Below, in pieces: positions 6,292 to 57,584 of a stretch of 64,000 nucleotides of DNA. A model generated the notes under the pieces. The model saw only the letters and a program-made list of their open reading frames with translations. It was not told the origin of the DNA and did not search any database. The DNA comes from an uncultured Fibrobacterales bacterium. GTDB taxonomy: Bacteria; Fibrobacterota; Fibrobacteria; Fibrobacterales; CAWVXU01. Position 1 is the first letter of the stretch; each line of letters starts with the position of its first letter. Location of the stretch: the NCBI GenBank assembly GCA_963934255.1, contig CAWVXU010000004.1, positions 1,641-65,640 on the forward strand, written 5' to 3'. A program made the position numbers and the translations under genes.

Positions 6292-6365
6292 AGCTGAAAA
6301 TTTACTTGTGATATGCATCAATAAATAGGACAATCATGAGATCAAATAAACAGTGAGACGCTCAG

Positions 6366-8857: not shown

Positions 8858-10018
<1,161 letters not shown>

Positions 10019-10130: not shown

Positions 10131-11711
10131 GTGGCTGAACAAGTAAAAATATACGACACAACCTTGCGTGATGGAAATCAAGCAAGAGGCCTCAGTTTTT
10201 CCCTAGCCGACAAATTGAATATTGCCAAGAAACTAGATACTTTTGGAGTTGATTATATTGAAGGTGGATGGCCAAACCCAACCAATCCAATTGATGTTGA
10301 ATTCTTTCAAAAAATGTCACAATATGAGTTAAAAAAGGCAAAGATTACCGCATTTGGCTCCACGAGAAGACCAGGTAAAGCTTGTAATGAAGATCCTATA
10401 TTGTTGGCGCTTGTTGAGGCCAAAGCATCCGTTTATACGATTTTTGGTAAGTCTTGGGATATTCATGTAACTGATGTTATTCGAACGACATTAGATGAAA
10501 ATTTAAAAATGATAGAAGAGAGTGTTGCCTTTCTTAAAGAAAAAGCTGACGAAGTCTTTTATGATGCCGAACACTTTTTTGATGGTTATAAAGCCAACCC
10601 CAAATACGCCCTAGAGACCCTCAAAGCAGCTCAAAGAGGTGGAGCAGATTGTATAGTACTTTGTGACACCAATGGTGGAATGGCACTCTCTTGGGAATTT
10701 CAAGAAATAATTGGTGAGGTACAAGAAATAATTATTGCACCTCTGGGTGTACATTGTCATAATGATACAGAATCTGCAGTTGCAAATTCACTCGCAGGTG
10801 TGAGGCAAGGTGTGGTTCAAGTTCAAGGTTGTATCAACGGCATTGGTGAGCGATGTGGCAATGCAAACCTCACGACGATTATTCCGAACCTTCAGTTTAA
10901 AATGAAAAAAGAGCTTAAATGTTCTGGAAATTTAAGTGATTTAAGGCGCTTATCTCTCTATGTGGATGAAATTGCAAATATTGGTTCAAACATACGCGCT
11001 CCCTATGTAGGTGAAGCTGCTTTTGCGCACAAAGGTGGAGCTCATATTGATGGCGTTATGAAACTTTCTCATTCCTTTGAACACCTTGATCCGAGTCAAG
11101 TAGGGAATGAACGCGAATTCATTATTTCGGATCAAGCAGGTGGTTCTTTAATCGTTGTAAGGCTAAATTCAATTTTTCCTAATTTGGACAAAAAAGATCC
11201 AAAAGTGAAAGCTATTTTAAGTGAAGTAAAAGAAAAAGAAACAAAAGGTTACCATTTTGAAACTGCTGGAGGCTCTTTTGAACTTATTGCTCGCAGAGCA
11301 TTATCTGAGTATGTAGACCCAGTTAAAGTGAAATCATATCGAGTAATTGAAGAGCATCAAGAAAATGGTAGTTTAGTTTCAGAAGCAACCGTGAAGCTTG
11401 AACTAAACGGTAAAATTTTACATCGGGTGGCTGAAGGGGAAGGCCCGGTGAATGCACTTGACGCCGCCTTTAGAATTGCATTGTCAGAGCGTCTTGATTT
11501 TATTCAAGCTGTGAAGCTTGATGATTATAGAGTTCGAGTTTTAGACTCTAAGGAGGGCACGGCTTCTAGTGTTCGCGTTTGGGCAACCTTTTCGGACGAA
11601 AAGGATACATGGAATACAGTAGGTGTTTCAGAAAACATTATTGAGGCTTCATGGGAAGCACTCATGGACGGTTTTAATTTTAAAATTATGAAGGAGACAT
11701 CCAATGTCTAA
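10131..11711 (+). CDS. cimA: LeuA-family synthase of the CimA type (probable (R)-citramalate synthase)
   Basis: IYDTTLRDGNQ, YIEGGWPNPTNPIDVEFF, AEHFFDGYKANPKYALETLKAAQRGGADCIVLCDTNGG and HCHNDTESAVANSL resemble the Geobacter/Leptospira-type citramalate synthase clade as I remember it. GTG start. The 3' end overlaps ilvE by 8 nt. Confidence 0.75.
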   Translation: MAEQVKIYDTTLRDGNQARGLSFSLADKLNIAKKLDTFGVDYIEGGWPNPTNPIDVEFFQKMSQYELKKAKITAFGSTRRPGKACNEDPILLALVEAKASVYTIFGKSWDIHVTDVIRTTLDENLKMIEESVAFLKEKADEVFYDAEHFFDGYKANPKYALETLKAAQRGGADCIVLCDTNGGMALSWEFQEIIGEVQEIIIAPLGVHCHNDTESAVANSLAGVRQGVVQVQGCINGIGERCGNANLTTIIPNLQFKMKKELKCSGNLSDLRRLSLYVDEIANIGSNIRAPYVGEAAFAHKGGAHIDGVMKLSHSFEHLDPSQVGNEREFIISDQAGGSLIVVRLNSIFPNLDKKDPKVKAILSEVKEKETKGYHFETAGGSFELIARRALSEYVDPVKVKSYRVIEEHQENGSLVSEATVKLELNGKILHRVAEGEGPVNALDAAFRIALSERLDFIQAVKLDDYRVRVLDSKEGTASSVRVWATFSDEKDTWNTVGVSENIIEASWEALMDGFNFKIMKETSNV

Positions 11712-14690: not shown

Positions 14691-14764
14691 CGGAGTATAG
14701 CTCAGCCTGGTAGAGCACTAGTTTTGGGTACTAGGGGCCGTAGGTTCGAATCCTGCTACTCCGA
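14691..14764 (+). tRNA. tRNA-Pro (anticodon UGG)
   Basis: Cloverleaf read by eye. The acceptor stem is CGGAGTA/TACTCCG with discriminator A. The D arm is GCTC..GAGC. The anticodon stem CTAGT/ACTAG encloses loop TTTGGGT, giving anticodon TGG with G37. The T arm is GTAGG-TTCGAAT-CCTGC. No CCA is encoded. Confidence 0.9.
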
Positions 14765-14772
14765 CTTTAAAA

Positions 14773-15058: not shown

Positions 15059-15475
15059 TTAATCTTGTGTTAAAGGTTGAAAGCTATCAAGTAGCTCGTG
15101 AAATGCATTTAATTTATGATTGAGATGTTCGTCAATAGGGCTAGTCATATCAATGAATGCACAATAATGACTCCAATAAACATGAGCAAATAACCTAATA
15201 TAGTTTTCGTTTGCAAAAGCTGACCTTAGACAGTTGGGTCCAGAATCCAGGTTGACCATTGAGGTTTCTTTATGTGATAAGACTTCGTACTGACTCATTT
15301 TTTCATGAACCTCAATGATCTTGTCTTCATTAATTTCCACTGATTTACGAGCTGATGTCACTTCTATACTGCCATGTCCGTGTGAGTGAATAAAGCGAGT
15401 TGAATTGGGGCTTTCTTCTGCAAGCCATAACTTGGGCTCTTCAATGGCAAACCAGCCACAGGGGGATATATGCAT
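15059..15475 (-). CDS. Hypothetical protein
   Basis: 138-aa ORF with a GGAGTA RBS. I recognise no family. Confidence 0.5.
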   Translation of the reverse strand: MHISPCGWFAIEEPKLWLAEESPNSTRFIHSHGHGSIEVTSARKSVEINEDKIIEVHEKMSQYEVLSHKETSMVNLDSGPNCLRSAFANENYIRLFAHVYWSHYCAFIDMTSPIDEHLNHKLNAFHELLDSFQPLTQD

Positions 15476-31817: not shown

Positions 31818-32066
31818 ATGAATAGGGCCCTAATTTAAGCCGGTGAGCAATTTCAAACAATATATTTTCGTCTCTTCGGCTTGGTTCTAAATTGTAATTA
31901 GAGTAATTTTAAAAGATGAAACAATTATAATTAAATAAACTTCTTCTACTTTTGAGTTGTAATACGCTCTCATTTTAAGAGTTTGTCTCGCAATTTTGTT
32001 AATTTTTGCTTACTCTTATGGGGCAGGCTTTTTTTACTTTTTTCTTTTCCAATTAAGGATGTTGTT

Positions 32067-33602
32067 ATGACACAGAGAAAACCATTTTTTTATGATGTTA
32101 CTTTAAGAGACGGTAACCAAGCTTTAGCTAAACCTTGGAATACTGAGGAAAAAGTACAAGTTTTTAATCAACTCGTTAAACTGGGGGTTCAGGGAATCGA
32201 AGTAGGATTTGCTGGTGCCAGTGATATGGATTTCGCTGCGTGTGAACACCTTGCTAAGATGGCACCTGATGACATTGTGATCTCTGGACTTGCTCGTGCA
32301 ATGGAAAAAGACATAGCTAAAGTTTGGGAGGCTATTCAATACGCAAACCAACCTCGTATCCATACCTTTATTGCTACAGCGCCATTTAATATGGAGCATG
32401 TGTTACGTAAATCCCCTCAAGAAGTTTTGAAAAAAGCGGAAGAAGCGGTTAGAATTTCCAAATCATACGTAGGGGATCAGGGGACAGTTCAGTTTTCAGC
32501 AGAGCATTTCGGTGATTGTCGTGAGAACTTAGATTTCGTCATTGATGTATTTCACGCAGTAGTTGAAGCTGGTGCAACGACAATTAATTTACCAAATACT
32601 GTTGAGCGCTATCGTCCGATGTTATTTGTAGAGATGGTAGCCAAAGTAGTTGAAGCTTTACCAAATAATATAGATGTTGCCGTACACGCCCATAATGATC
32701 TTGGCATGGCCACTGCGACCACCGTTGAATCATACTTTGCAGGTGCAGTCCAAGTGGAAACAGCTTTAAATGGATTGGGTGAGCGAGCAGGAAACACAAA
32801 TATGTATGAGGTCGCTTTAGGGCTTCATAACTGTGGTGTGGATGTACCTTTAAATTTAGAACATATTTATGAGACAGCTTTACTTGTTAGTGATTGGGGC
32901 GATCTTAGAATACCAGATAAGGCTCCTATCATAGGACCTGAAGCGATTGCTCATAGGTCAGGAATACATCAAGATGGAGCTGCCAAGACAAAGGGTATGT
33001 CTAAGGGCGCTTATCGTCCGATTGATTTCAATTTAATTGGCCGTGGTGATAATGACTTAATTACTTTCACATCTCAGTCCGGTCGAACTGCTGTTTATGA
33101 GATGATTGGAAATATGGGATATCCAATTAGCCTTGAAGAAGCGACTGAACTACAGCCTGTTTTGAAAGAGATTTCAGAACGTGAAGGCGAATTGAACGAA
33201 GAACGCGTCCTCGAAATATTCAAAAATGAATACGTTAATGTTGGTAGTTACTTGAAATTCACATCAGTCAATGGCATACGTGACGAGGAAGTGTTTGAGT
33301 TTAAATTCAAGCGTGGTAACGAGATTCTACAAGAACGAATTTCTGCAGAGGGTCCTATTGAAGCTTGTCTTCGATTACTTCGTGAATTAGGGTATTCTGT
33401 TGAACTGAAAGATTATAGCCAGAGTGTGGTCAGTGACAAAGACAAAGATTGGGGAGGGCGTGCGCTTTCTGAGATTGAGCTTAAGTCAAAAGACAAGATT
33501 GCTGTGGGCCGAGGAGTTCATAACGATACACTTGTGGCAAATATGAAAGCATTATTTACTGCAGCAAATTTACTTTTCCATAAATTTGAACCTGTAAAAT
33601 AA
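32067..33602 (+). CDS. leuA: 2-isopropylmalate synthase
   Basis: YDVTLRDGNQA, IEVGFAGAS, HAHNDLGMATA and NGLGERAGNTNMYE are present, plus a C-terminal regulatory domain. I prefer the ATG at 32067 (AAGGAT RBS); the track start at 31983 adds a T-rich hydrophobic extension. Confidence 0.88.
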   Translation: MTQRKPFFYDVTLRDGNQALAKPWNTEEKVQVFNQLVKLGVQGIEVGFAGASDMDFAACEHLAKMAPDDIVISGLARAMEKDIAKVWEAIQYANQPRIHTFIATAPFNMEHVLRKSPQEVLKKAEEAVRISKSYVGDQGTVQFSAEHFGDCRENLDFVIDVFHAVVEAGATTINLPNTVERYRPMLFVEMVAKVVEALPNNIDVAVHAHNDLGMATATTVESYFAGAVQVETALNGLGERAGNTNMYEVALGLHNCGVDVPLNLEHIYETALLVSDWGDLRIPDKAPIIGPEAIAHRSGIHQDGAAKTKGMSKGAYRPIDFNLIGRGDNDLITFTSQSGRTAVYEMIGNMGYPISLEEATELQPVLKEISEREGELNEERVLEIFKNEYVNVGSYLKFTSVNGIRDEEVFEFKFKRGNEILQERISAEGPIEACLRLLRELGYSVELKDYSQSVVSDKDKDWGGRALSEIELKSKDKIAVGRGVHNDTLVANMKALFTAANLLFHKFEPVK

Positions 33603-33756: not shown

Positions 33757-34716
33757 GTGGATATAACGATGAAAAATATTCGCTTATGGGTAGTAATACT
33801 TTCTGGCATTTATGTTTTGATTTGCTTGGGAGCTTACTATGGCCAGGTTCACTTGACATTTGCTGTTACAAAAATATCAAGTGAAAGTAAGATTCAACTA
33901 TTGAGCAAGTATGATGGCCGTCTTAAGGAGATTCAATGGGTCAATTCTGCTCAAGATACCCTGTGGGGGTTTAGTTTACTTAAAGAAAATCTCAAGGCAA
34001 TAAACTTATCAGAGGATCAATTGAAGCAGGAATGGAACAATTATTCTCAGGATGAAGCCATTGTCGGACCAAATCTTGGATCGAGCAGATATTCGGAACG
34101 ATATTCAGGTCGAAAAATTTTGTTGTATTTTGGTGGTAATGCCGATGATGTCTGGGAGGCAATTCAGCTCGTAGATCTTCCTGATTATGATGTTTATTCT
34201 ATAAATTACCCGGGATTTGGTCGCTCTATGGGAGTGCCTCTTGAGAGCACTATCATTTCAAATGCACAAGGATTTTATAACAGCCTCGAAATTCCAGTAA
34301 ATACGCCGGTCTTGATTGTAGGCAGAAGTCTAGGAACTGGAGTCGCTGTCCAATTGAGCCAATGGATATTGTCCAACAAGTTAAAAGATGTAAAACTTTT
34401 AGAAACTTTTTTAATTACTCCCTATAATTCACTTTGGAAAATAGGAAAACATAGATACCCGTATTTACCTGTGAAGGCACTGATTACATCGCCTTTTGAA
34501 TCAGAAAATTACCTGAGTGAGTTAAAAAATAAAGTGAGTGTGGTTTATGCAGAATCAGATCAAATAGTACCTCATCATTACACAGACTCCCTGGTGGTAA
34601 AGTTACAGAGTAGGAACTTGCCTCAATCGCTTGATATCGATACGATTTTTGGGTTTAACCACAACTCGATCCTACAATCACCTGGTTTAAATGCTTTGCT
34701 TCATGCTACTCACTAA
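33757..34716 (+). CDS. Alpha/beta-fold hydrolase, membrane-anchored
   Basis: N-terminal TM helix. The nucleophile elbow is GRSLGTG (GxSxG). ESD and a late His are candidate triad residues. GTG start at 33757, or ATG at 33769. Confidence 0.7.
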   Translation: MDITMKNIRLWVVILSGIYVLICLGAYYGQVHLTFAVTKISSESKIQLLSKYDGRLKEIQWVNSAQDTLWGFSLLKENLKAINLSEDQLKQEWNNYSQDEAIVGPNLGSSRYSERYSGRKILLYFGGNADDVWEAIQLVDLPDYDVYSINYPGFGRSMGVPLESTIISNAQGFYNSLEIPVNTPVLIVGRSLGTGVAVQLSQWILSNKLKDVKLLETFLITPYNSLWKIGKHRYPYLPVKALITSPFESENYLSELKNKVSVVYAESDQIVPHHYTDSLVVKLQSRNLPQSLDIDTIFGFNHNSILQSPGLNALLHATH

Positions 34717-34821
34717 GGTGAACGTAAATATTTTCTCGATAATCTATTAAATACGTTTTTATGTACTCATTTGTGCAGTATGTTTTTTCTATAATTAAGG
34801 GTAATTCTACCGGAGTTTTAG

Positions 34822-37800
34822 ATGAGTCAAAAAATTGTAGTGAGAAACGCCCAAGAACACAACCTTAAAGGTATCGATATTGATATCCCTCGGGATAGTA
34901 TGGTCGTTGTTACTGGTGTTAGCGGATCAGGTAAAAGTTCCTTAGCTTTTGATACACTGTTCCAAGAAGGGCAAAGAAAGTATATCGAGTCCCTCTCGGC
35001 ATATGCTAGACAATTTATTGGTACGATGAAGACTCCTAAGGTAGAGAGAATTGAAGGTATTAGTCCGACAATTTCCATCGATCAGAAGACAGTAAATAGA
35101 AATCCAAGATCAACCGTGGGAACCATTACTGAGATTTGGGATCACCTTAGATTGCTATTTGCAAGACTAGGAATTCCACATTGTCCCTCATGTGGGGATT
35201 TGATTCAGGCTCAAACAGTTTCACAAATAACTGACGGACTTCTTGTTGATTATTACGATGCCAAGCTCATTATTATGGCGCCTATTGTTCGAGAACGCAA
35301 AGGTGAATATCGTAAGGAATTGAGCGAGCTACAGCAAGCCGGCTTCGTTCGTGCGCGTATCGATGGAGAAATGCGTGAACTTGATGAAGACATTGTTTTA
35401 GCTAGATATGAAAAGCACAGTATTGATGTTGTGGTGGATCGTCTAGTGATTGAGGATAAAACTTTACCAAGAATTCGTGAATCTATAGAAGCTGCGCTTA
35501 AGCAGTCAGTTGATCTAGTCAGCTTTATGATTAATGATGAATATATGCTTCAAGGTACTTCACTTTCATGTTCTAAATGTCGCGTGACAATTCCTGAAAT
35601 TGAGCCGAGACTTTTTAGTTTTAATGACCCACAAGGTCAATGCTCTAGTTGTACTGGTCTTGGCTTCATTCAAGATTTTGAAATTGAATTGTTGATACCA
35701 GACCCGAGTCTTTCAATTGAGCAAGGTTGTATCAAAGCACAAATGGCTGAAGGCCATTTAATGTTTAGCCGTTATGGAATGCAAGAGTTTAAAATTCTAG
35801 CCAAGGAATATGGGTTTCAATTAAACGTGCCTTGGAATAAAATGTCTAAAAAGGCTAAGCACATTTTAATGTATGGTTCCGAAGATGAGCTGAAATTCAA
35901 ATTAAAACGTCGCGGTCGACGTGGTTTAAAAATTAAAGACGAGCATCGAAGGGTCAGGGGGTTTCTAGAAGTTTTACAGCGTGTTTGGAATCAATGGCAC
36001 ATTCCTATGATGAATAAATATATGCGCCGTACCGATTGCGACACTTGTCATGGTGATAAATTAAATACTGCGGCAATGGCGGTTCTATTTGAAGGAAATA
36101 ATATTCAAGAATTAAGTCGTCTCGGAGTTTCAGATGCGAGAAAACTTTTTGACCAATTTCCTCGCAATCCAAGAGAAGAAAAGATTGGTGGTGAATTGTT
36201 TAGTGAGATTCAATCAAGGTTAAGTTATTTAGATGAAGTTGGTTTGGGTTATTTAACATTAGATCGTGCCGCCAATACTTTGTCAGGCGGTGAGTCACAA
36301 CGGATTCGACTTGCTTCTCAAGTGGGTGCTGGTTTACAGGGCGTTACTTATATTCTTGATGAACCATCTATTGGGTTACATCCTCGTGATAATGAAAAAC
36401 TTTTGGAAATATTGCAACGATTAAAAAATCTAGGTAATACGCTTATCGTGGTTGAGCATGACGAAGATACGATGCTTCAAGCTGATCAGGTGATTGATAT
36501 TGGACCCGGGGCCGGTGTCGAAGGTGGTGAAATTTTAGCTTCTGGATCTTTGAAATCAATTGTCAATAATAAAAAGTCTATTACTGGAGCTTATCTCAGT
36601 GGTCGAGAAAAAATTGAAGTTCCAAGTATTCGCCGTGAGTTAAGTGCTGATTCGATTAAAGTAATTGGTGCCTGTGAAAATAACTTAAAAAATATTGATG
36701 TGGAATTCCCCTTAGGAGGAATGGTCACATTAACTGGAGTGTCAGGTTCTGGAAAGTCCACCTTGATGAATCAAATTCTTAAAAAGTCTTTGGCTCAAAC
36801 CTTGCATGGTGCAGAAGATGTTCCAGGAGCTCATCAAAAAATTGAAGGTGTTGGTTTTATTGATAAAGTCATAGAAATTGACCAAAGTGCTATAGGGAGA
36901 ACTCCAAGATCTAACCCGGCAACTTATACCAAAATTTGGGATGAGATTAGAAATCTATTTGCTCAACTCACTGAATCGCAAGTCCGAGGTTATTCTAAAG
37001 GTCGCTTTTCATTTAATGTGAATGGTGGACGGTGTGAAGAATGTGAAGGCGCCGGCGTCAATGTCATTGAGATGCAATTACTTGAAAATGTTCAAGTCCC
37101 TTGTGAATCTTGCAATGGGAAACGCTTTAATCCGGCTACTCTAGAGATTCATTTTAAGGGTAAGACTATTTCTGATATTCTAGGAATGTCGGTGAGTATC
37201 GCGCTAGAATTTTTTAAAGCCCACCCAAAGATTTATCGAGGATTAAAAATTCTTGAGGATATTGGATTGGGTTATCTTGAACTCGGTCAACCAAGTACCA
37301 CTCTTTCGGGCGGTGAAGCTCAAAGAATGAAGATTGCTTCTGAATTAAAAAAGCCAGAAAAAGGACACACTCTTTATCTTCTTGATGAACCAACAACTGG
37401 CTTGCATTTCCATGATATTAAGCGCCTCATTTCTTGTATGAATACCTTGGTGGATAGACAAAATTCCATGATTGTCATTGAGCATAATTTGGATGTAGTT
37501 AAAGTCTCTGATTGGGTGATCGATATGGGGCCCGATGGTGGAGACGGCGGCGGTGAGATAGTCTTTTGTGGTCGACCTGAGGATCTAGCCAAATGTAAGA
37601 AGTCAGATACGGGGAGATATTTAAAACCATTACTCAATCCAAAAAGAAACCCCAGTGAAGAACTTTTTACGAGTAAATCCTATCTAGAAACTCAAAAAAG
37701 ATTAAAAGAAAAGTCGAAAGAAAAAGTCGATCTAGATATACTCATTCAAGGTGCCAAAAAGCATAACTTAAAGAATATTGATGTGAGAATACCTAGACAT

Positions 37801-40248
37801 AAGTTGACGGTGTTAACAGGTGTCTCTGGCTCTGGTAAATCATCTCTTGCATTTCATACACTTTTTGCGGAAGGGCAACGACGCTTTGTTGAGAGTATGA
37901 GTACCTATGCGAGAAGATTTTTGGGTCAGATGGATCGTGGTGGAGTTGAAGCAATCCAAGGTCTAGCGCCATCTATTGCAATTGATCAGTCGAGCACCAA
38001 CAGAAGCCCTAGATCCACTGTGGCTACAATCACCGAGCTCTATGATTATTTCAGATTGTTATTTTCTCGAATAGGGAGGCCTCACTCCCCAGCTTCTGGT
38101 GGATTAATGGTACGATATAGCCATTTGGATCTATACAAAAAAGTGTTAAGAGAAAATGAAGGTGAAAACTTATTTATCATGGCTCCCGTTTTGCATCCTA
38201 GGATTAATCTAAACCTTATTGCAAAAGACCCTGCGAATTTAAAAGCACTTGTATCAAGGTTTTTGGAGTTAGGTTACAGACGCTTATGGGATGGTAGTCG
38301 TTGGATAATTTTAGATGAGGACACGAAACTTCCTAGTTTACAACAAGCTTGGCTTTTGATTGATAGAGTTAAAGTGGGTTCTAAAAATCGGGCGAGAATC
38401 ATTGAATCGTTTGAACAAGCTGAAGAGTATGGACATGGTCTGATTGCCTGTTCCGCTGGGAACCCAGAAGATGGCTTACCTATCAGTATTTACTCAAATT
38501 TTTATGGAAATAATGACGACCTATACTTCTTTGATGGTGAACTAGAGCCGAAACATTTCTCTTTTAATTCGCATTGGGGGGCATGTATCGTCTGCACTGG
38601 CCTTGGTTTTGTGGGGTCGAAAGTTTGTCCGTCTTGTGACGGTGATAGACTCAAGCCGGAATATAGTGCTGTTCTTGTGGGTGGCATTAATGTGACTGAA
38701 TTATCAAGAATGAGTATTGCCACTCTATTACAATTCTTTAAAGATTTAGAACTGTCTAAAACCGAAAACCTAATCGTTAAACAACTCTTGAAAGAGGTGA
38801 TGGGGCGTTTAGAATTTCTAGTAAAAGTGGGCCTTGATTATATCCAACTTGATCGCAGAGGTGATACTTTATCAGGAGGGGAGGCACAACGAATTCGTTT
38901 GGCATCTCAAATTGGCTCCGGTCTAGAAGGAGTACTTTATGTGCTAGATGAACCTACAGTGGGATTACACCAAAAAGACACAGACTTACTTCTACAGACT
39001 TTATTTCAATTGAGAAATCTGGGCAATACTGTCGTCGTGGTAGAACATGACTTAGAATTCATACGTCACTCTGATCACTTGATAGAGCTTGGACCAGGAG
39101 CCGGTGACCTTGGGGGTGAACTCATCGCCGAGGGTACACCTAAACAATTAGCAAGGAAAAAGAAGTCTCTTACTGGACAATACTTATCGGGTAAGAAACA
39201 ACTCGGCCTGGGCTATGGAGCAGAAGTAGAACAAATTGAAATGGTTGACTCATGGGTCACTTGGAATCAAATAAACTTTAGAAGTCTGAAAAATTTTGAC
39301 TTAAAAATACCACAAGGAGCCTTGACTGTGGTTACTGGTGTTTCAGGCTCAGGTAAGTCAACTTTGATAGAAGAGTGCTTATACCCACTTGCTTATGCCA
39401 AAATTAATAGAAAAAGAAAACCAAATAAAGAGTTTGGTGATATATCTTGGGATAGTGAATTTAAACAGGTTCAGTTAATTGATCAAAGCCCTATTGGTAA
39501 ATCACCAAGGTCAACTCCTATTACTTATACCAAAACATTTGATTTAGTTCGAGATTTATATGCTTCTTTAAATGAATCAAAAATAAAGGGCTATAACAAA
39601 GGTCGTTTCTCTTTTAATAAGGCGGAGGGACGATGTGCTGAGTGTGAAGGCAAGGGGTCTCACTATATCGAGATGCATTTTTTATCTGATGTTTGGGAGC
39701 TATGTGAATCATGCCAAGGGCAAAGGTATAATCAGGATACTTTAGCGATTAAATTTAAAGGTAAAAGTATTGCTGATGTCATGAGTATGAGGATTAACGA
39801 AGCAGTAGAGTTTTTTGAATCTCAACCCAAGATTGTTAAAACGCTTAAAACCTTCAAAGAAATTGGCCTCGGCTATCTCAAATTAGGTCAACCCGCAAAT
39901 ACTTTGTCTGGAGGTGAAGCTCAACGTTTGAAGCTTGCTGCAGAACTTGCTAAAGCAGGGCGGAGTCAAGGGCTGTTTTTGTTAGATGAGCCTACTACGG
40001 GGCTTCATATGGATGATATACAGAGGCTCTGGGCTTTACTTCGAAGATTAGTGAGTCAAGGTCACACCGTGGTTCTTATCGAACATCACCCAGAAGTCAT
40101 CGCTAAATCAGATTGGGTCATTGACCTTGGTCCTGTTGGTGGTGATTTGGGCGGAGAGCTATTGTTTTCAGGTTGGTCCAAAGATTTGTTGAAATTGAAA
40201 AAGAATGAGACCACTCAGGCTGTTTTAAAAGCAATGACGCATATGTAA
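34822..40248 (+). CDS. uvrA: Tandem-duplicated excinuclease ABC subunit A (UvrA-UvrA fusion, 1808 aa)
   Basis: One uninterrupted ORF. It has four Walker A motifs GVSGSGKS(S/T), with codons starting near nt 34915, 36736, 37819 and 39337. It has four ABC signatures LSGGE(S/A)QR and four Walker B motifs LDEP(S/T). Module A (938 aa) ends in the canonical GRYLKPLL. A Lys/Glu-rich linker follows at 37636-37728, then module B of about 839 aa. Confidence 0.9.
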   Translation: MSQKIVVRNAQEHNLKGIDIDIPRDSMVVVTGVSGSGKSSLAFDTLFQEGQRKYIESLSAYARQFIGTMKTPKVERIEGISPTISIDQKTVNRNPRSTVGTITEIWDHLRLLFARLGIPHCPSCGDLIQAQTVSQITDGLLVDYYDAKLIIMAPIVRERKGEYRKELSELQQAGFVRARIDGEMRELDEDIVLARYEKHSIDVVVDRLVIEDKTLPRIRESIEAALKQSVDLVSFMINDEYMLQGTSLSCSKCRVTIPEIEPRLFSFNDPQGQCSSCTGLGFIQDFEIELLIPDPSLSIEQGCIKAQMAEGHLMFSRYGMQEFKILAKEYGFQLNVPWNKMSKKAKHILMYGSEDELKFKLKRRGRRGLKIKDEHRRVRGFLEVLQRVWNQWHIPMMNKYMRRTDCDTCHGDKLNTAAMAVLFEGNNIQELSRLGVSDARKLFDQFPRNPREEKIGGELFSEIQSRLSYLDEVGLGYLTLDRAANTLSGGESQRIRLASQVGAGLQGVTYILDEPSIGLHPRDNEKLLEILQRLKNLGNTLIVVEHDEDTMLQADQVIDIGPGAGVEGGEILASGSLKSIVNNKKSITGAYLSGREKIEVPSIRRELSADSIKVIGACENNLKNIDVEFPLGGMVTLTGVSGSGKSTLMNQILKKSLAQTLHGAEDVPGAHQKIEGVGFIDKVIEIDQSAIGRTPRSNPATYTKIWDEIRNLFAQLTESQVRGYSKGRFSFNVNGGRCEECEGAGVNVIEMQLLENVQVPCESCNGKRFNPATLEIHFKGKTISDILGMSVSIALEFFKAHPKIYRGLKILEDIGLGYLELGQPSTTLSGGEAQRMKIASELKKPEKGHTLYLLDEPTTGLHFHDIKRLISCMNTLVDRQNSMIVIEHNLDVVKVSDWVIDMGPDGGDGGGEIVFCGRPEDLAKCKKSDTGRYLKPLLNPKRNPSEELFTSKSYLETQKRLKEKSKEKVDLDILIQGAKKHNLKNIDVRIPRHKLTVLTGVSGSGKSSLAFHTLFAEGQRRFVESMSTYARRFLGQMDRGGVEAIQGLAPSIAIDQSSTNRSPRSTVATITELYDYFRLLFSRIGRPHSPASGGLMVRYSHLDLYKKVLRENEGENLFIMAPVLHPRINLNLIAKDPANLKALVSRFLELGYRRLWDGSRWIILDEDTKLPSLQQAWLLIDRVKVGSKNRARIIESFEQAEEYGHGLIACSAGNPEDGLPISIYSNFYGNNDDLYFFDGELEPKHFSFNSHWGACIVCTGLGFVGSKVCPSCDGDRLKPEYSAVLVGGINVTELSRMSIATLLQFFKDLELSKTENLIVKQLLKEVMGRLEFLVKVGLDYIQLDRRGDTLSGGEAQRIRLASQIGSGLEGVLYVLDEPTVGLHQKDTDLLLQTLFQLRNLGNTVVVVEHDLEFIRHSDHLIELGPGAGDLGGELIAEGTPKQLARKKKSLTGQYLSGKKQLGLGYGAEVEQIEMVDSWVTWNQINFRSLKNFDLKIPQGALTVVTGVSGSGKSTLIEECLYPLAYAKINRKRKPNKEFGDISWDSEFKQVQLIDQSPIGKSPRSTPITYTKTFDLVRDLYASLNESKIKGYNKGRFSFNKAEGRCAECEGKGSHYIEMHFLSDVWELCESCQGQRYNQDTLAIKFKGKSIADVMSMRINEAVEFFESQPKIVKTLKTFKEIGLGYLKLGQPANTLSGGEAQRLKLAAELAKAGRSQGLFLLDEPTTGLHMDDIQRLWALLRRLVSQGHTVVLIEHHPEVIAKSDWVIDLGPVGGDLGGELLFSGWSKDLLKLKKNETTQAVLKAMTHM

Positions 40249-40266: not shown

Positions 40267-41391
40267 TTAGTAATTGTATTTGTGAGGAAGTTTTCGCTCT
40301 ACCATTTGTTCAACAACTACGTCGGGTTGATAAAGTTTGACTAAAGAATCTAGTTTTGATTTGGATAGTTTTTCCCAATAAAAGTGGGCCTCACCAAATT
40401 GGCGTGCGATAAATGGGATTAAGGCAACGGAATATGAATCTCTAAACATGAGTAAAGTAAGCTTTTTATTATGGCATTTGGTGTGAACCGTAGCAGTTTC
40501 TAGTTCGTGGTCCCTTTCTTCAGAGTATTGACAAAGACTATCTGGAAATTGAGGGCGGGGGTCTTTATCAATTTTATTTAAACTTTGTACCATTGTGACA
40601 AGATCACCATTGAGTTTATCTTGATTCTTGAATTCATTTTCTTTAACTAGATAAGGTTTTATGTCTTCAGGGAAAAATTTTGCAATTCTATTTAATAATT
40701 CATACTGAACAAGGTTGGCACCATGCATATTCCAATGAGTATCGTATTGATAGTATAGGCGATTACGTTCCTTGGCCGCAGTTAGCAGAGGGAGGACATT
40801 TATGTAATGTTCTTTTAGGATGGGCATTGCTGTTGAGTTTAATTGGTCATAGACATTCAACTTGGATTGCTTTTTAATATAAGAAGGAAGATTTTCTGGA
40901 TAGATGGTATGCTTGCTTGGTGTGATAAAGTAAAAGAAGGGGATAGCCTTTGCTTCTAATTCAACCTTCACTTGATTCATTGATTGAACAAATTGGTTTA
41001 ATTCATTTGTAGTGAAATTATTCTGATTAGTATAGTCACCAATCGGGTCACCAAAACGTTCGTAATTCGGTCTGATACTACCGAGATAAAACCAATCATC
41101 CTTCCCTAAAGTCACATCTTGTACAAAATATTTTTGAATAATCCTTGAATAGAGACTATTTAGTTCAATTCTAAAACCAAATTGATCAGAATAATAGTCA
41201 TCAAATTGCTTCGGCCATTGCTTAAAATCAGTGAGCGATATGGGTGGGGGGGGGAATTGTTTCAAACTACGTTTTTCACTAGGTGATTTTTTTAGATCAT
41301 CTTGACTTAGCCATTTGAAAATGGGAAAAAACAAGATACTGACAAACCCAAGAACTAAGAACCATTTCGATATATTTGATTTTTGACTCAT
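40267..41391 (-). CDS. AlgJ/AlgX-like (SGNH-like) polysaccharide O-acetyltransferase component
   Basis: N-terminal membrane anchor and the YQYDTHWNMHGA motif (DxHW of the AlgJ/AlgX family). I prefer the ATG at 41391, 1 nt after the stop of the upstream MBOAT gene. Confidence 0.7.
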   Translation of the reverse strand: MSQKSNISKWFLVLGFVSILFFPIFKWLSQDDLKKSPSEKRSLKQFPPPPISLTDFKQWPKQFDDYYSDQFGFRIELNSLYSRIIQKYFVQDVTLGKDDWFYLGSIRPNYERFGDPIGDYTNQNNFTTNELNQFVQSMNQVKVELEAKAIPFFYFITPSKHTIYPENLPSYIKKQSKLNVYDQLNSTAMPILKEHYINVLPLLTAAKERNRLYYQYDTHWNMHGANLVQYELLNRIAKFFPEDIKPYLVKENEFKNQDKLNGDLVTMVQSLNKIDKDPRPQFPDSLCQYSEERDHELETATVHTKCHNKKLTLLMFRDSYSVALIPFIARQFGEAHFYWEKLSKSKLDSLVKLYQPDVVVEQMVERKLPHKYNY

Positions 41392-41392
41392 A

Positions 41393-42820
41393 TTAAAACC
41401 TAAAATAAATAAATGGGTTATAAGTTGAAGATGCAATCTTCAATACGCAAAAGCAAAAAAGACAAAGCAAAAAGAACATTTTACTTAACTTGGCAAGCTC
41501 ATAATTGATACCTATTCTTTTAAAATTGTTTCTAATTAAATGTTTTAACAGATTAAAAGTAGGGAATGCAATAAATAATGAGATTGTTCCAATCAACATA
41601 AATTCTTTACTAAAGATGGAAAGAATTTGAAATTGATTCGTCCAAATATTGTTGAAGTTGAACATGTCAGAAAGGTATAAAATAGAACCATTGAGACTTT
41701 CTGATCGGAAAAAAACCCAGCCAATGAGTACTATTGTAATAGTATATGAATGTTGAATTACTCCAGGTAATTTGTTGAGTAACTTATACCCACCAGCGTG
41801 TTCAAGAGCTAAAAACGTACCATGAAAAAGCCCCCAAATTAAAAAGTTCCAACTCGCCCCATGCCAAAAACCTGTGACAACAAATACACAAAATAGATTG
41901 AAATAGATACGAGATGATCTCACTCGGCTTCCACCTAATGGTATGTATAAATAATCCCTAAACCAAGTCGAAAGTGATATATGCCAGCGTCGCCAAAACT
42001 CCCTAATAGATCTAGATATATAGGGGTAGTTGAAGTTTTCTAAAAAGTGGAAACCAAACATTTTACCTAGTCCAATAGCCATATCAGAATATCCTGAAAA
42101 ATCAAAATAAATTTGAAGTCCGTATGCGATAATTCCAATCCATGCAATTGGCAGAGTGCGTTCATCGGAAGAAAGTTGAAATATTAAGTCACTCAGTTCA
42201 CCCATTGGATTGGCAAGCCACATTTTTTTACTCAATCCAAAGATGAATCTTTCAATACCAAGGCTGAAATCACTGAGCTTGTGAGCTCTTGATTCAATTT
42301 GGTCAGTTACATCTGAAAAACGAACAATAGGGCCAGCAATGAGCTGAGGGAAGAGAGAGAGATATAATGCAAGGTGGAATATGTTTTTTTGAACTTTAGC
42401 ATCATTACGGTAAACATCTACTAAATACGAGATGGCTTGAAAAGTAAAGAAACTAATTCCGAGTGGTAGGTGAATATCTGGAGGAGTGAGTGATAGACCA
42501 TGGTCGGTCCCGATAAATTTATTCCAATTTTCAATGAGAAAGCTAAGATATTTAAAATGTAATAAGATGACTAGGTTTAAGCCAACACCCACTAAGAGTA
42601 CTTTTTTCTTTTGGTTAGAGTAATCTAGCCAAATCCCCACACTATAATTAACAGTAATTGAGGCTATCATGACTAATAAATAAGTAAATTCACCCCAAGC
42701 GTAGAATAATAAACTCATCCCTAATAAAATGAGATTTTTTACTGACTTGGGGCTCAAGAAATAGAACACCAAAGTCAATGGTAAAAAACCAAATAGGAAT
42801 GTTGGGGAGGTGAAAACCAT
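41393..42820 (-). CDS. MBOAT-family membrane O-acyltransferase (AlgI/DltB/PatA-like)
   Basis: 475 aa and polytopic. The MBOAT hallmark FWRRWHISLSTWFRDYLYIPLGG and FVVTGFWHG (catalytic His) are present. Confidence 0.9.
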   Translation of the reverse strand: MVFTSPTFLFGFLPLTLVFYFLSPKSVKNLILLGMSLLFYAWGEFTYLLVMIASITVNYSVGIWLDYSNQKKKVLLVGVGLNLVILLHFKYLSFLIENWNKFIGTDHGLSLTPPDIHLPLGISFFTFQAISYLVDVYRNDAKVQKNIFHLALYLSLFPQLIAGPIVRFSDVTDQIESRAHKLSDFSLGIERFIFGLSKKMWLANPMGELSDLIFQLSSDERTLPIAWIGIIAYGLQIYFDFSGYSDMAIGLGKMFGFHFLENFNYPYISRSIREFWRRWHISLSTWFRDYLYIPLGGSRVRSSRIYFNLFCVFVVTGFWHGASWNFLIWGLFHGTFLALEHAGGYKLLNKLPGVIQHSYTITIVLIGWVFFRSESLNGSILYLSDMFNFNNIWTNQFQILSIFSKEFMLIGTISLFIAFPTFNLLKHLIRNNFKRIGINYELAKLSKMFFLLCLFCFCVLKIASSTYNPFIYFRF

Positions 42821-54085: not shown

Positions 54086-55069
54086 TTAAGCCCTTGCCTC
54101 CTTGGGGATCAAAATATAAGTCAGCAGTCCTAAGAATGCTTGGAAAACCATCAAAAGGTATGCCAATAAGCTGACTTGCAGACAATGTGAATCACTTACG
54201 CCACTTAATTGCCCCAATATATAGATACTCGTAGCTTCTCTAAGTCCTACTCCCCCGATACTGATCGGGAGGTATAAGAGTAAGCTAAGTACAGAAAAGT
54301 AGATAGCGTTATCCCAAAAGGATATTTCAGCTCCAACTCCTTGATAAAAAAGAAGTTGAATAATAGATATAAGAATTTGTATTAAAAAAGAATACATCAA
54401 AGCAAGCCCGAGAGTTTTAGGTTGTTTGACTGTAGCTTGAATGTGATGGATAGATGCTTTGAAAACTTTAAATGGTATAAATTTAGCAACCCAATTTGAT
54501 TTGAAAATAGTGATCAGACAAAAGAGAAAAACGAGCAATGAAATTATACTCAGTGGAAGGTAAGTAGACTCTGGAAGAAGCTCTCTCGATGAAAAAGGTA
54601 GTGAAACCCACATTAAGAGCATCATCATTGATAGACCTAGAATCTTCGCAAAGACAATAGAGCCAATACTTTCTGATTTGGCTTCTATTACTTTTCCTAA
54701 TGAATATGATTTAATAATATCAGCTCCAACTCCAAGGGGAACCGCTAAATTAAGCGCATATCCGTAAAGTATATACTTAAGTAAAAAGGGGAAAGTGATT
54801 GAATTACCGTGTTTGAGTAATAATATTTTCCACCTTAGTCCTTGTAATAAAACAATTACCAGGGAAATAAGTAGACCGCTGAGTACATGGAAAACACTAA
54901 TGTTTTTTAACTCATCAATTACTTGATGATAATCAAATTTTTTAGTCACAAAATAAATTAGTCCGAAGCTAATGATTACTTTGAGTGCTGTTAGTGTGTG
55001 CTTCAATGTTAACTCATTTTTCTGATGTATTGAGAATTGAATTATTATTGCTTTTCCATGCATAGGCAA
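54086..55069 (-). CDS. Flippase-like (UPF0104 / LPG-synthase-TM family) membrane protein
   Basis: Polytopic. The N-terminal pattern KKFDYHQVIDELKNISVFHVLSGLLISLVIVLLQGLRWKILL is characteristic of this family. The true start may be downstream, because the track start overlaps the upstream gene by 56 nt. Confidence 0.6.
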   Translation of the reverse strand: MPMHGKAIIIQFSIHQKNELTLKHTLTALKVIISFGLIYFVTKKFDYHQVIDELKNISVFHVLSGLLISLVIVLLQGLRWKILLLKHGNSITFPFLLKYILYGYALNLAVPLGVGADIIKSYSLGKVIEAKSESIGSIVFAKILGLSMMMLLMWVSLPFSSRELLPESTYLPLSIISLLVFLFCLITIFKSNWVAKFIPFKVFKASIHHIQATVKQPKTLGLALMYSFLIQILISIIQLLFYQGVGAEISFWDNAIYFSVLSLLLYLPISIGGVGLREATSIYILGQLSGVSDSHCLQVSLLAYLLMVFQAFLGLLTYILIPKEARA

Positions 55070-57584
55070 TTAGACCTATAAGAATAGCAAGTCCAAGATA
55101 GACCCATTTTTTGGTAGAACGAACTGATTCACTAATAAATTGAACCGTTATATTTGAACTCCCTTGAGGAATTTCAAAAGCTAATAGGGTATGAAATGCT
55201 TTAAGAGGTGGCGTTTGTACTCCATTAACCATTATGACCCAATCTTTATGAAAGTTTTCATTAAAAAGAATATAACCAGATGATTCCGATTGTGTCTTCA
55301 TCTCATAGAAATCGGAGCTATTTGAACTTGTTATAGTGGATGTAGCTTTTGGTAGCGGTAATTCTGTTCTAGTTATTTGACCCAAACTATCTGTTTGAGT
55401 AATTGGGTTGGGACGCTCTATGGTCTTGATGTCATCATGCAGCTCTTTATCAAGAATGATTGTATTTTGATAGTCTGATTTACCAGATTTTAAGTAGGTC
55501 GGGATATCAATGTTTTTTCGTTTTTCGGAATAATGAAAAACAGTTGTGCGCGCAAAGGCCGAATCATTTTGAATGATTTGATTTTGCCCATTTCTATTTC
55601 TTACAATCAGAGATTTAGCTCCTAATAAATTCAAGAATGGGTTACTTTGAATGTTTTTTAAGCTTGCCCCTAGTTGTAGTTTATACAATAAATTTTCTGA
55701 ACTACGACCGCCTTTAAATGATCGAAAACTTGATAACTTATTATCATGATCACCTTGTAAAAATCTCAAGCCAAAATAAGGTCCGAAATTTGAGTTTATA
55801 GATTGGCCGTTAATATTGAATACTCGATATGAATTTAAGCTATCGGTATTGAGTGCTTTGATGGGTTGAGAAAAAGACTCCGCGGGTGGTAGTTTTGATG
55901 ATCGATCCAGAGTGACATTAAATGGGTTAAGAATCATTAAATTAGTTCCTAGACCAAGAATGAAAAACGCGATTAAAATTTGTGTTTGATCTTTGTGTAT
56001 TTTTAAGACGAAGTAAGTGAGACCTGAACAAAAAACAAGCCAAATAAAACTCGTGATAGTATTTCCGGGTGCCAAGGCGATTAAGTTAAGTTTTTCACCT
56101 GCTAAAGGGGTAAAGTATGGTGCTGCTTCGAATGATGGCCCATGAGAAAATCCAAGTAAAAGAATAGATAATAGAGGAACTGCTAGTCCCAGCCAAACGG
56201 ATTTGGGAACGTCTTTTAAACTATTAAAGTGCGTCTTAACTATGTATAAAATAAAAGCAACAAACAAAATGGAAGCAAATCCAGCTAAGCCACCCTTGGC
56301 ACTCGGCCATTGAAACCGGAGTAATGTGAGAATGAAACCTAATGCAATCAAAGTAGCAAAGGGTTTCCAGTTCAGGTTTGATCGGAGAGTTTCAATTTTG
56401 GGGAAATAAACTAAAATTTGAGAAGCGGAGATAAGGAGTAGAACGGGAATCCAAAATAAAACCATTGATGGTGCACGAAAACTTTTTGCTCCTGGGATAA
56501 TTTCATAAAATAGTTTAAATAGGGGAGTATCAGCACCAACTGAATAGATCACAAGTAGACTCATTGCTGAGACGAGAAAGAGACTTTGTTTCCAAAAGCG
56601 GCTTGAAAATAATCCAATAATTCCCAAAATTAATAAAACAAGCCCTGGTGAATCGTGATTGAGTTTAAAATGATTGTGGCCCCAGTATGGGTTTTCCATT
56701 GTATTAGACTTCGGGCTAGGTAGAGAATAACCTACAAAGTTTGGAAGAATCATTGATGCAGTCTCTTCAAAATGATTTGACCAAGATGCGGAGTGACCAA
56801 AGGATTGCTGTTGGGCATCCGAGCGCACTGATTGGGTCGTGGTATATTCATAGGGAGGGATGATTTGCAAGGAACAAAGACCCAGGCCTGCAATGAGGGC
56901 AATGCCGATTAAAACTTGTCTTTGAACTTTTAATTTATTAGAGGATTTTGTGTCATTGATGAAATTTTCAAATAGACTAAAGAATAAAATACCCCAGAGA
57001 AAAAAGTAACCGAGTTGAATGTGGCCCATGATGGCCCAAACGGAAGTAAAAGCAAATATTGGAAGACCCCAAGTCCAATTTTCTCGACAATACTTGATAA
57101 TTGCGTATGCACCTAGAGGAGCGATGGCAATAACCATCATTTTCCCATCATGCCCAGGATAAATGTGAGTGAAAAATTGTGGATTAAGAGCAAATAAAGA
57201 TGCAAGAAGTCCGCCAATTCTCCAATCTTTAGTTAAATAACTTCCCAATATATAAGCGCTAATAAAGCCGCTAAGCAGTGTAGTGGCGAACATCCATGCG
57301 AGAGAACGAGCAGGGTCCATCAATAATTGTAAAAAGGTGATTGGGTGGTAAGGGGAGCCATAGGTTGCATCTAAAGTCGGATAACCGCCAATTTTACTAG
57401 GGTCCCAATGCGGTAACCAGAAACTTGTTCTGAACCATTTGCCACCAATGTGATTGAGCTGGTCTTGAGACATAATTAATTGATTGGAATCAAATAGGGC
57501 ATCCTTCATCAAAAAGCTAATGATAACCGCAAATGAGAGAGTCAAAAGGCCAAAATATTTTAGATTTAGTGGTGTTGCTTTCAA
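55014..57584 (-). CDS. Large polytopic membrane protein, YfhO-like (GT-C-type glycosyltransferase candidate)
   Basis: 856 aa with more than 12 predicted TM helices, followed by a ~300-aa extracytoplasmic C-terminal domain and a final TM helix. This architecture and the N-terminus resemble the YfhO family. The assignment rests on recollection only. Confidence 0.5.
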   Translation of the reverse strand: MKATPLNLKYFGLLTLSFAVIISFLMKDALFDSNQLIMSQDQLNHIGGKWFRTSFWLPHWDPSKIGGYPTLDATYGSPYHPITFLQLLMDPARSLAWMFATTLLSGFISAYILGSYLTKDWRIGGLLASLFALNPQFFTHIYPGHDGKMMVIAIAPLGAYAIIKYCRENWTWGLPIFAFTSVWAIMGHIQLGYFFLWGILFFSLFENFINDTKSSNKLKVQRQVLIGIALIAGLGLCSLQIIPPYEYTTTQSVRSDAQQQSFGHSASWSNHFEETASMILPNFVGYSLPSPKSNTMENPYWGHNHFKLNHDSPGLVLLILGIIGLFSSRFWKQSLFLVSAMSLLVIYSVGADTPLFKLFYEIIPGAKSFRAPSMVLFWIPVLLLISASQILVYFPKIETLRSNLNWKPFATLIALGFILTLLRFQWPSAKGGLAGFASILFVAFILYIVKTHFNSLKDVPKSVWLGLAVPLLSILLLGFSHGPSFEAAPYFTPLAGEKLNLIALAPGNTITSFIWLVFCSGLTYFVLKIHKDQTQILIAFFILGLGTNLMILNPFNVTLDRSSKLPPAESFSQPIKALNTDSLNSYRVFNINGQSINSNFGPYFGLRFLQGDHDNKLSSFRSFKGGRSSENLLYKLQLGASLKNIQSNPFLNLLGAKSLIVRNRNGQNQIIQNDSAFARTTVFHYSEKRKNIDIPTYLKSGKSDYQNTIILDKELHDDIKTIERPNPITQTDSLGQITRTELPLPKATSTITSSNSSDFYEMKTQSESSGYILFNENFHKDWVIMVNGVQTPPLKAFHTLLAFEIPQGSSNITVQFISESVRSTKKWVYLGLAILIGLIAYAWKSNNNSILNTSEK

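Follow-up and report, generated by a model that had tools for sequence, protein, structure and literature searches.

A naturally fused, double-length UvrA with one canonical and one truncated module in an uncultured Fibrobacterales bacterium

Introduction

Canonical UvrA is a head-to-head homodimer with four ATP sites. All solved UvrAs are homodimers of chains of at most 993 aa, and the Protein Data Bank (PDB) contains neither a double-length UvrA structure nor any UvrA chain above that length. The dimer has four nucleotide sites and contacts DNA mostly through the insertion domain and signature domain II, and there is debate on whether UvrA and UvrB combine as A2B2 or as A2B1 and on how the four ATP sites share the work (PMC7835731). 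[quoted passage not shown] The design of a double UvrA is already known and annotated in several phyla and appears to be experimentally uncharacterised. A description of a double-length UvrA was not found in the literature searched, where passing mention in classification papers is possible. Together with the upper length of the PDB chains, this agrees with an initial annotation of the locus studied here, whose author knew of no biochemical or structural characterisation of such a protein.

Here, we analyse a fused double uvrA gene on a 64-kb stretch of DNA (hereafter the window) that is part of a 202-kb contig of an uncultured Fibrobacterales bacterium, and compare its two halves with each other, with single-module UvrAs of class I and class II, and with double UvrAs of other lineages.

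Results

The coordinates of the gene, its parts and its upstream elements are collected in Table 1. At the GC content of the window (37.4%), the probability that 1808 consecutive codons stay open by chance is about 2e-58. The initial annotation had read this frame as two UvrA modules joined head to tail, which is borne out by the ORF itself and by conservation of the fusion in more than 100 clusters. It had further listed four copies each of the Walker A, signature and Walker B motifs. All of them were found, with the nucleotide positions given for Walker A being exact: Walker A (GVSGSGKS) lies at aa 32, 639, 1000 and 1506 (nt 34915, 36736, 37819 and 39337), the LSGGE(S/A)QR signatures at aa 487, 828, 1350 and 1695, and the DEP(S/T) Walker B motifs at aa 513, 855, 1376 and 1722. 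Four EH H-loops are located at aa 544, 886, 1407 and 1753. All proteins of the same architecture (82/82) retain an intact set of Walker A, Q-loop, signature, Walker B and H-loop motifs in every one of their four sites.

Module A comprises aa 1-938 and terminates in TGRYLKPLL, as single UvrAs do, and module B restarts at the equivalent of residue 5 of module A; both the length and canonical C-terminus of module A and the restart near residue 5 had been proposed before and are confirmed. The linker DNA between the modules contains, again as annotated initially, neither a stop codon nor an in-frame ATG, GTG or TTG, and the next in-frame methionine of module B follows only downstream of the module B Walker A motif. 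The linker had, however, been given as about 31 aa at nt 37636-37728, whereas the quoted peptide has 32 residues and therefore spans nt 37636-37731.

Table 1. Features of the fused uvrA locus (positions refer to the window)
Feature	Position (nt)	Strand	Basis or remark
Putative SOS (LexA-type) operator TACTCATTTGTGCA	34764..34777	+	45 bp upstream of start codon, 12 bp upstream of TATAAT
-10-like hexamer TATAAT	34790..34795	+	read from sequence
Shine-Dalgarno GGAG, 6 nt before ATG	34812..34815	+	read from sequence
Fused double uvrA gene	34822..40248	+	ATG start, 1808 aa plus stop codon, uninterrupted frame
Module A (aa 1-938), complete class I UvrA	34822..37635	+	1325 bits alone vs PRK00349 cut-off 1147
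Module A UvrB-binding domain (aa 125-249)	35194..35568	+	Pfam PF17760; domain HMM 150 bits
Module A insertion domain (aa 278-405)	35653..36036	+	Pfam PF17755; HMM 148 bits
Linker (aa 939-970), NPKRNPSEELFTSKSYLETQKRLKEKSKEKVD	37636..37731	+	basic, low GC (30%)
Module B (aa 971-1808), class I-like, without insertion domain	37732..40245	+	AlphaFold2 model with pLDDT 90.6
Module B UvrB-binding-domain-like region (aa 1103-1213), divergent	38128..38460	+	HMM 34.5 bits
Module B collapsed Zn2 (C1255/C1258 ... C1269/C1272)	38584..38637	+	10-residue loop replaces ~128-residue insertion domain
Module B third zinc finger (C1605/C1608 ... C1628/C1631)	39634..39714	+	four cysteines retained

Module A, a complete class I UvrA, exceeds the family cut-off without any contribution of module B, and the whole protein reaches 2315 bits in the curated UvrA equivalog test. 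All three zinc modules of this half have the pattern CCCC, and the insertion domain is flanked by the Zn2 cysteines C274/C277 and C406/C409. The Pfam insertion-domain model PF17755 has a single match in the whole protein, at aa 289-392.

Module B is about 120 residues shorter than module A, a difference that corresponds to the insertion domain, and the four Zn1 cysteines are also gone, with S, S, N and D at their positions, while Zn2 and Zn3 are retained. Since the insertion domain is present in module A and reduced to a 10-residue loop in module B, the protein is a UvrA with one canonical and one truncated module. Two UvrA modules are thus present as initially annotated, but module B is not the second complete UvrA that it was taken for. 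Single UvrAs of Bacteroidota likewise lack the Zn1 cysteines, and because these are ordinary UvrAs, Zn1 is no strict criterion of the family. On its own, module B scores 994 bits, under the PRK00349 cut-off of 1147, and 969 bits against TIGR00630, whose cut-off is 730. The AlphaFold2 model of module B has a pLDDT of 90.6, including a confidently folded UvrB-binding-like region, and its best structural matches are 2r6f and 3uwx, i.e., class I UvrA including the UvrA-UvrB complex. The TM-score is 0.85 to class I UvrA (2r6f), compared with 0.72 to DrUvrA2 and 0.67 to Ecm16. With two ATPase sites, the UvrB-binding domain, Zn2 and the Zn3 finger all retained, module B is class I-like.

The module B UvrB-binding domain may no longer bind UvrB, because it diverges much faster than its counterpart (pairwise identity 0.33 among B modules vs 0.585 among A modules) and is matched weakly by the domain model (34.5 bits vs 150 in module A). 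The stronger reading of this low pairwise identity, namely that the domain is degenerate, was withdrawn: at seven UvrB-binding-domain positions that are near-universal in single UvrAs, the B modules of 11 proteins without a second insertion domain keep 91% of the residues, and module B of the window protein has the consensus residue at 7/7.

The fusion is widespread. When 1.84 billion cluster representatives were searched exhaustively, nearly all of the best 150 matches were multi-module UvrAs, and the best 120 homologues are without exception double-length (120/120; 1,718-1,987 aa). Named double-length homologues annotated as UvrA derive from Fibrobacter, Fibrobacterales, Planctomycetota and SAR324, and the double form also occurs in Chlamydia-like bacteria and others. 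According to its TypA, the window itself falls among Fibrobacterota. The rarity that the initial annotation implied does therefore not hold, as the architecture is common, is routinely annotated as UvrA and is even represented by an NCBIfam model of 1809 positions. Among the best 150 cluster representatives there was no clear stand-alone protein resembling module B; one candidate emerged (P0364, 880 aa), which has the appearance of a fragment. For the window clade, bootstrap support is 100% both for the grouping of the A modules and for that of the B modules, and the family-wide clades receive 85% for B (62% with more taxa) and 61% for A (53% with more taxa). In the neighbour-joining module trees, support for a sister relationship of A and B modules is unstable, decreasing from 77% to 17% with more taxa in Thermodesulfobacterium and amounting to 32-36% in the Chlamydia type and 63% in P0310. 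The second module has lost its insertion domain not only in the Fibrobacterota type but also in the SAR324 type, in Thermodesulfobacterium and in other architectures. The ten largest ORFs of the window include no uvrB, uvrC, mfd or second uvrA.

Upstream of the fused gene, the motif TRCNCN4GTGCA has one exact match in the window, compared with 0.54 expected by chance. The 14-bp element precedes the fused uvrA at four loci (the window, L083, L084 and L001), and in L084 it is also found 43 bp upstream of recA, giving 2 matches in L084 against 0.08 expected. TRCNCN4GTGCA resembles the LexA box of F. succinogenes. In other bacteria, uvrA is damage-inducible. To judge from these sequence matches, the fused uvrA is probably under SOS control via this putative LexA-type box.

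Discussion

The 1808-aa ORF likely represents the UvrA of this bacterium, i.e., its NER damage sensor, in a single-chain double form that would fold as an intramolecular pseudo-dimer. As canonical UvrA pairs head to head into a homodimer with four ATP sites, modules A and B of one chain would fold back on each other, and a hard-wired 1:1 pseudo-dimer is a reasonable expectation for the fused polypeptide. Such a pseudo-dimer could scan DNA, bind damage and hand the damage over to UvrB. It would be asymmetric: a single insertion-domain arm, where the homodimer has two, would touch the DNA, and of the UvrB-docking domains one would be canonical and the other divergent. The putative LexA-type box over the promoter would render expression damage-inducible.

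There is next to no probability that the fusion was created by errors of sequencing or assembly, or that it is a pseudogene-like case of recent read-through between two neighbouring genes, and we found no point in favour of either. The identical 1808-aa ORF is present in two assemblies and all of the 120 best homologues are double-length, so the fusion is not an artefact. The junction is the same in relatives of 74-76% identity, and the closest relative of the window ORF was recovered on 11 contigs from other samples. Read-through is further contradicted by the fact that module B has neither an in-frame start nor a ribosome-binding site of its own, and both versions by the sharing of the architecture among more than 100 clusters. 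Codon usage is uniform over module A, module B and the neighbouring genes, composition is uniform along the gene, and a test for an assembly chimera based on these two properties was negative. The fusion is old and under purifying selection. Alternatively, fused chains might pair between molecules, module A with the A or B module of another chain, to give either a dimer of chains, which would have eight ATP sites, or open oligomers assembled on DNA. The segment after TGRYL, which has 16-22 residues in most lineages, comprises 34 residues here and up to 85 in relatives, and because the linker of this protein and of some relatives exceeds the typical length, the A-B geometry is not tightly fixed. 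However, short linkers in the narrow range of 20-22 residues are found repeatedly, namely in Planctomycetota, Fibrobacterales and Thermodesulfobacterium, as fits a fixed intramolecular geometry, and insertion-domain loss from one module alone fits a fixed A-B partnership. We consider pairing between molecules unlikely, and favour the intramolecular pseudo-dimer.

Two further alternatives concern the role of module B. It could be a decaying remnant without a function of its own, given that its sequence changes faster than that of module A (pairwise identity 0.487 vs 0.564 over the whole module) and that a domain and, in this lineage alone, a zinc site are missing. Decay is nevertheless difficult to reconcile with ATPase motifs, Zn2 and Zn3 that are kept in 82/82 proteins of this type, with a Zn3 finger region whose conservation is higher in B modules (0.74) than in A modules (0.66), and with the confident model of module B, which together make a remnant extremely improbable. 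Module B could also be a class II-like module that is attached to a normal UvrA and confers UvrB-independent tolerance to DNA-binding drugs. Such roles are known from stand-alone UvrA paralogues (PMC9328131), double UvrAs with class II-like modules (WBIW+WIW and WIW+WIW) occur, and the initial annotation had hinted at a parallel with UvrA2, DrrC and Ecm16. Yet class IIa proteins have the insertion domain and lack the UvrB-binding domain and Zn1 (PMC9328131), and module B shows the reverse, with a UvrB-binding-like domain, no insertion domain and a modelled fold nearer to class I. Because it keeps the UvrB-binding domain, the third zinc finger and the ATPase sites, module B is class I-like and not UvrA2/DrrC-like. 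Domain content thus largely refutes a class II module, which we regard as very improbable, and does not bear out the suggested parallel.

From the viewpoint of annotation, this uvrA of its lineage is a routine gene, in a form that the databases already name correctly. Of modest but real interest is that no structure has been solved for this large and conserved family of UvrAs, whose members are single-chain and visibly asymmetric. The fused UvrA hints that full symmetry is dispensable, and as a natural fused heterodimer with one insertion domain it permits mutations in one half only. It is tempting to extend the argument and to suppose that covalent UvrA fusion arose repeatedly, that the second module often shed its insertion domain and that the sensor is intrinsically asymmetric. 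We put this forward as a tentative and rather doubtful possibility. If true, a single insertion-domain arm would suffice, and DNA clamping and UvrB loading would be divided differently between the halves. A natural single-chain UvrA, in which one protomer at a time can be mutated, would then be a tool for distinguishing UvrA2B1 from UvrA2B2 and for dissecting the roles of the four ATP sites.

In comparison with known systems, every defining part of canonical class I UvrA, as represented by the proteins of E. coli, G. stearothermophilus (2R6F/3UWX), T. maritima (3PIH) and M. tuberculosis (3ZQJ), is found in module A, and module B shares with them the fold, the ATPase sites, the UvrB-binding domain, Zn2 and Zn3. 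Whereas canonical protomers are separate and identical, those of the window protein are non-identical parts of one polypeptide, the second without insertion domain and Zn1. The loss in module B is the same, in natural form, as that engineered in insertion-domain-deleted E. coli UvrA, which according to Wagner, Moolenaar and Goosen in 2011 (DNA Repair 10:483) reportedly still discriminates damage and sits less stably on DNA. The dimer of the E. coli deletion mutant, however, lacks both insertion domains, and the fused protein would keep exactly one. Class II UvrAs (D. radiodurans UvrA2 2VF7, DrrC and Ecm16 7SH1) resemble module B as UvrA-family ABC ATPases that are devoid of an accessory domain, but the losses are opposite, as class II lacks the UvrB-binding domain and module B the insertion domain, and their structures are less similar to the module B model (TM 0.67-0.72) than those of class I.

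With the curated equivalog model NF001885 / PRK00635 ('excinuclease ABC subunit A'), the window protein shares nearly the same length. It is not a member, with 1286 bits against a cut-off of 3054. The model was presumably built on Chlamydiaceae UvrA, e.g., of C. trachomatis (~1786 aa), and is narrow, since an environmental Chlamydia-like double UvrA also remains under its cut-off (1459 bits vs 3054). Chlamydia-like doubles, whose module B retains an insertion domain, form A and B clades of their own (93% and 99%). Close counterparts are the double UvrAs of Fibrobacter, Fibrobacterales, Planctomycetota and SAR324 ('excinuclease ABC subunit UvrA', about 1,720-1,990 aa), which have the fusion of the window protein and whose A and B clades (Fibrobacterota/Planctomycetota/SAR324) enclose its modules A and B. 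Doubles of the Fibrobacterota and SAR324 type have likewise deleted the insertion domain from module B, whereas those of Planctomycetota have retained it. Named double UvrAs share only 57-62% identity with the window protein, which also differs from them by a longer linker and by loss of the module B Zn1 cysteines that most of its relatives keep.

Results

The UvrA-UvrA fusion is real. An identical 1808-aa product is present on an ENA contig (201,885 bp) and in a separate Logan assembly, and the junction recurs in the two closest relatives, of 1816 aa (76% identity) and 1818 aa (74%); 11 contigs carry one of these relatives, whose upstream gene order is also that of the window. Modules A and B and the neighbouring genes are uniform in GC content and codon usage. 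The ORF starts with ATG, and the chance that a random frame stays open for 1808 codons is ~2e-58 in the 37.4% GC window. The initial annotation had rightly described two UvrA modules fused in one ORF, but had overlooked that the insertion domain of module B is deleted. Every motif it listed was found where it had been placed (see table), module A has the proposed canonical C-terminus (TGRYLKPLL, as in single UvrAs), the linker contains neither a stop nor an in-frame ATG/GTG/TTG and is unable to start translation, and the alignment of module B begins at module A residue 5. The basic, low-complexity linker starts at nt 37636 as annotated, but its 32 residues extend to 37731 and not to 37728. Measured from the TGxYL in module A up to where module B begins, this segment has 34 residues in the window protein, 20-22 in most lineages, 16 in Chlamydia-like proteins, and 85 at the longest.

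Features of the fused uvrA, its surroundings and related loci
Feature	Location	Strand	Remark
TACTCATTTGTGCA, 14-bp TRCNCN4GTGCA element	window 34764-34777		directly upstream of -10 box
TRCNCN4GTGCA	L083 (P0003 locus) 9870-9883
TRCNCN4GTGCA	L084 (P0004 locus) 6355-6368, 15456-15469
TRCNCN4GTGCA	L001 (Fibrobacterales genome) 7197-7210
TATAAT	26 nt upstream of fused uvrA start
GGAG	6 nt 5' of fused uvrA ATG
Fused uvrA ORF	window 34822-40248	+	1808 codons
Walker A (GVSGSGKS)	aa 32, 639, 1000, 1506
LSGGE(S/A)QR signature	aa 487, 828, 1350, 1695
DEP(S/T)	aa 513, 855, 1376, 1722
EH H-loop	aa 544, 886, 1407, 1753
Module A Zn1	C121/C124 ... C250/C253		flanks UvrB-binding domain
Module A Zn2	C274/C277 ... 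C406/C409		flanks insertion domain
Module A Zn3 finger			present
ORF without NCBIfam match	window 55014-57584	-	856 aa
ORF without NCBIfam match	window 33757-34716	+	319 aa, immediately 5' of uvrA
ORF without NCBIfam match	window 40267-41436	-	389 aa, Pfam ALGX, adjoins MBOAT gene
HMGL-type synthases (paralogous)	window 10131-11711, 31983-33602
tRNA-Pro(TGG)	window 14691-14765
tmRNA gene	window 63538-63912		tag peptide AEDNYSYAMAA

Module A possesses every class I feature and by itself scores 1325 bits, above the UvrA equivalog cut-off of 1147. In module B, the halves of Zn2 are just 10 residues apart, and the insertion domain is therefore gone. All four Zn1 cysteines are substituted as well; Zn1 is kept in module B of most relatives and is also missing in ordinary Bacteroidota UvrAs. 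The UvrB-binding domain HMM scores 34.5 bits in module B vs 150 in module A, and across 82 relatives with the same architecture the mean pairwise identity of this domain is 0.33 in B vs 0.585 in A, while the nucleotide-binding domains and Zn3 finger are about equally conserved in the two modules and all ten ATPase motifs are intact in A and B alike (82/82). Seven reference positions of the UvrB-binding domain, conserved to 85% or more among 17 single UvrAs spanning many phyla, are all retained in the window's module B, as are 91% of these residues across 11 tested B modules without insertion domain. Because these positions are largely retained, we would not declare the domain dead. A stand-alone 841-aa UvrA with its insertion domain cut to ~26 residues (ORF from 9986 on L046, MAG 'bacterium isolate Yes71-08') groups among ordinary single UvrAs; loss of this domain is thus not limited to fused UvrAs.

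AlphaFold2 modelled module B with confidence (pLDDT 90.6, pTM 0.82). Class I structures (2r6f, Geobacillus UvrA, TM-score 0.85; 3uwx, UvrA-UvrB complex, 0.83) rank above class II (DrUvrA2, 0.72; Ecm16, 0.67). Given these matches and its domain content, module B is a class I module that has lost the insertion domain.

LexA of Fibrobacter succinogenes has been characterised, according to the literature. The TRCNCN4GTGCA element precedes the fused gene in four divergent relatives (window, L083, L084, and L001) and reads TAC in the window clade vs TGC in Fibrobacterales. A further copy in L084 sits 43 bp 5' of recA, and this locus has two matches in 21.8 kb vs 0.08 expected. The element, which we take to match the LexA box reported for F. 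succinogenes, looks like a putative SOS/LexA operator of the phylum Fibrobacterota. If so, the fused uvrA would be an SOS-regulon gene, as uvrA is elsewhere.

The window is ordinary chromosome, with genes for ffh, cheA, ilvC, citramalate synthase, typA, smc, tRNA-Pro, and tmRNA. The named relatives of its TypA are all Fibrobacterota (~65% identity), which indicates a deep-branching, uncultured, Fibrobacterota-like lineage; named Fibrobacterota carry the same double uvrA. One of the two HMGL-type synthases in the 64 kb scores above the equivalog threshold for citramalate synthase (656 bits), and the other is LeuA-like and directly upstream of the uvrA neighbourhood. Three ORFs had no NCBIfam match at E<=1e-10: the position of the 319-aa ORF is conserved in the P0003 locus, and the ALGX domain and MBOAT neighbour of the 389-aa ORF suggest polysaccharide O-acylation.

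Double UvrAs are not rare but widespread and annotated. The best 120 matches among 5.8 billion clustered proteins were all 1,718-1,987 aa long, those named being "excinuclease ABC subunit UvrA" of Fibrobacter, Fibrobacterales, Fibrobacteraceae, Planctomycetota, and SAR324. In species-representative genomes, double ORFs were seen in the Fibrobacterales, in many Planctomycetota, in Phycisphaeraceae and Chlamydia-like genomes, and in single MAGs of Spirochaetota and Thermodesulfobacterium. When 1.84 billion representatives of clusters at 50% identity were searched exhaustively with module B (HMMER), nearly all of the best 150 matches were multi-module (1,100-2,343 aa). Sorted by domain HMMs (W, Walker A; B, UvrB-binding domain; I, insertion domain), 45 of these clusters have the window protein's WBIW+WBW design, 28 are class II-like WIW+WIW pairs (~1,600 aa), 16 are WBIW+WBIW, and the remainder comprises several rarer combinations. 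The WIW+WIW representatives (P0280, P0291, P0305, and 25 more; ~1,560-1,680 aa) lack the UvrB-binding domain in both modules. Rarer orders include a full module preceded by one lacking the insertion domain, and class I plus class II. The longer UvrA-family proteins P0243 (2334 aa), P0249 (2343 aa), and P0292 (2166 aa) may contain a third partial module or extra domain. A 1,921-aa double UvrA in a MAG labelled 'uncultured archaeon' (L018, CAZHRF010000038.1) could reflect a binning error or horizontal transfer.

In neighbour-joining trees, A and B modules of the window clade form one clade each with 100% support. A and B modules also group apart across the Fibrobacterota, SAR324, and Planctomycetota doubles (B clade 85%, 62% with more taxa; A clade 61%, 53% with more taxa), a separation that fits one old fusion in this family. 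The A modules (93%) and B modules (99%) of Chlamydia-like doubles each form a clade of their own. Module B has no insertion domain in the Fibrobacterota and SAR324 types or in Thermodesulfobacterium; it has one in Planctomycetota, Spirochaetota, and Chlamydia-like proteins.

Discussion

Functional UvrA is a dimer containing four nucleotide sites, most of its DNA contacts are made by the insertion domain and signature domain II, and estimates of UvrA:UvrB stoichiometry include both A2B2 and A2B1 (PMC7835731). By analogy, the fused chain would form an intramolecular pseudo-dimer doing the job of the UvrA2 dimer, with a single insertion-domain arm and a pair of unequal UvrB-docking domains. The main rival to such pairing within one chain is pairing of modules between chains. 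The PDB holds no chain >993 aa matching the fused UvrA, and full-text searches of the papers available found no description of double UvrAs. We regard the protein as interesting chiefly for mechanistic studies, in which it offers a natural UvrA that is asymmetric and single-chain.

The window UvrA adds a fairly divergent new member to a kind that is widespread and annotated but apparently unstudied by experiment. It falls outside the curated 1809-position model NF001885/PRK00635, where it scores 1286 bits and the cut-off is 3054. The parallel initially hinted at with class II UvrAs in drug tolerance (UvrA2, DrrC, Ecm16) is not supported, as module B has a UvrB-binding domain and its predicted fold is closer to class I. 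The losses are opposite: the UvrB-binding domain is absent from class II UvrAs (PMC9328131), whereas module B is without the insertion domain.
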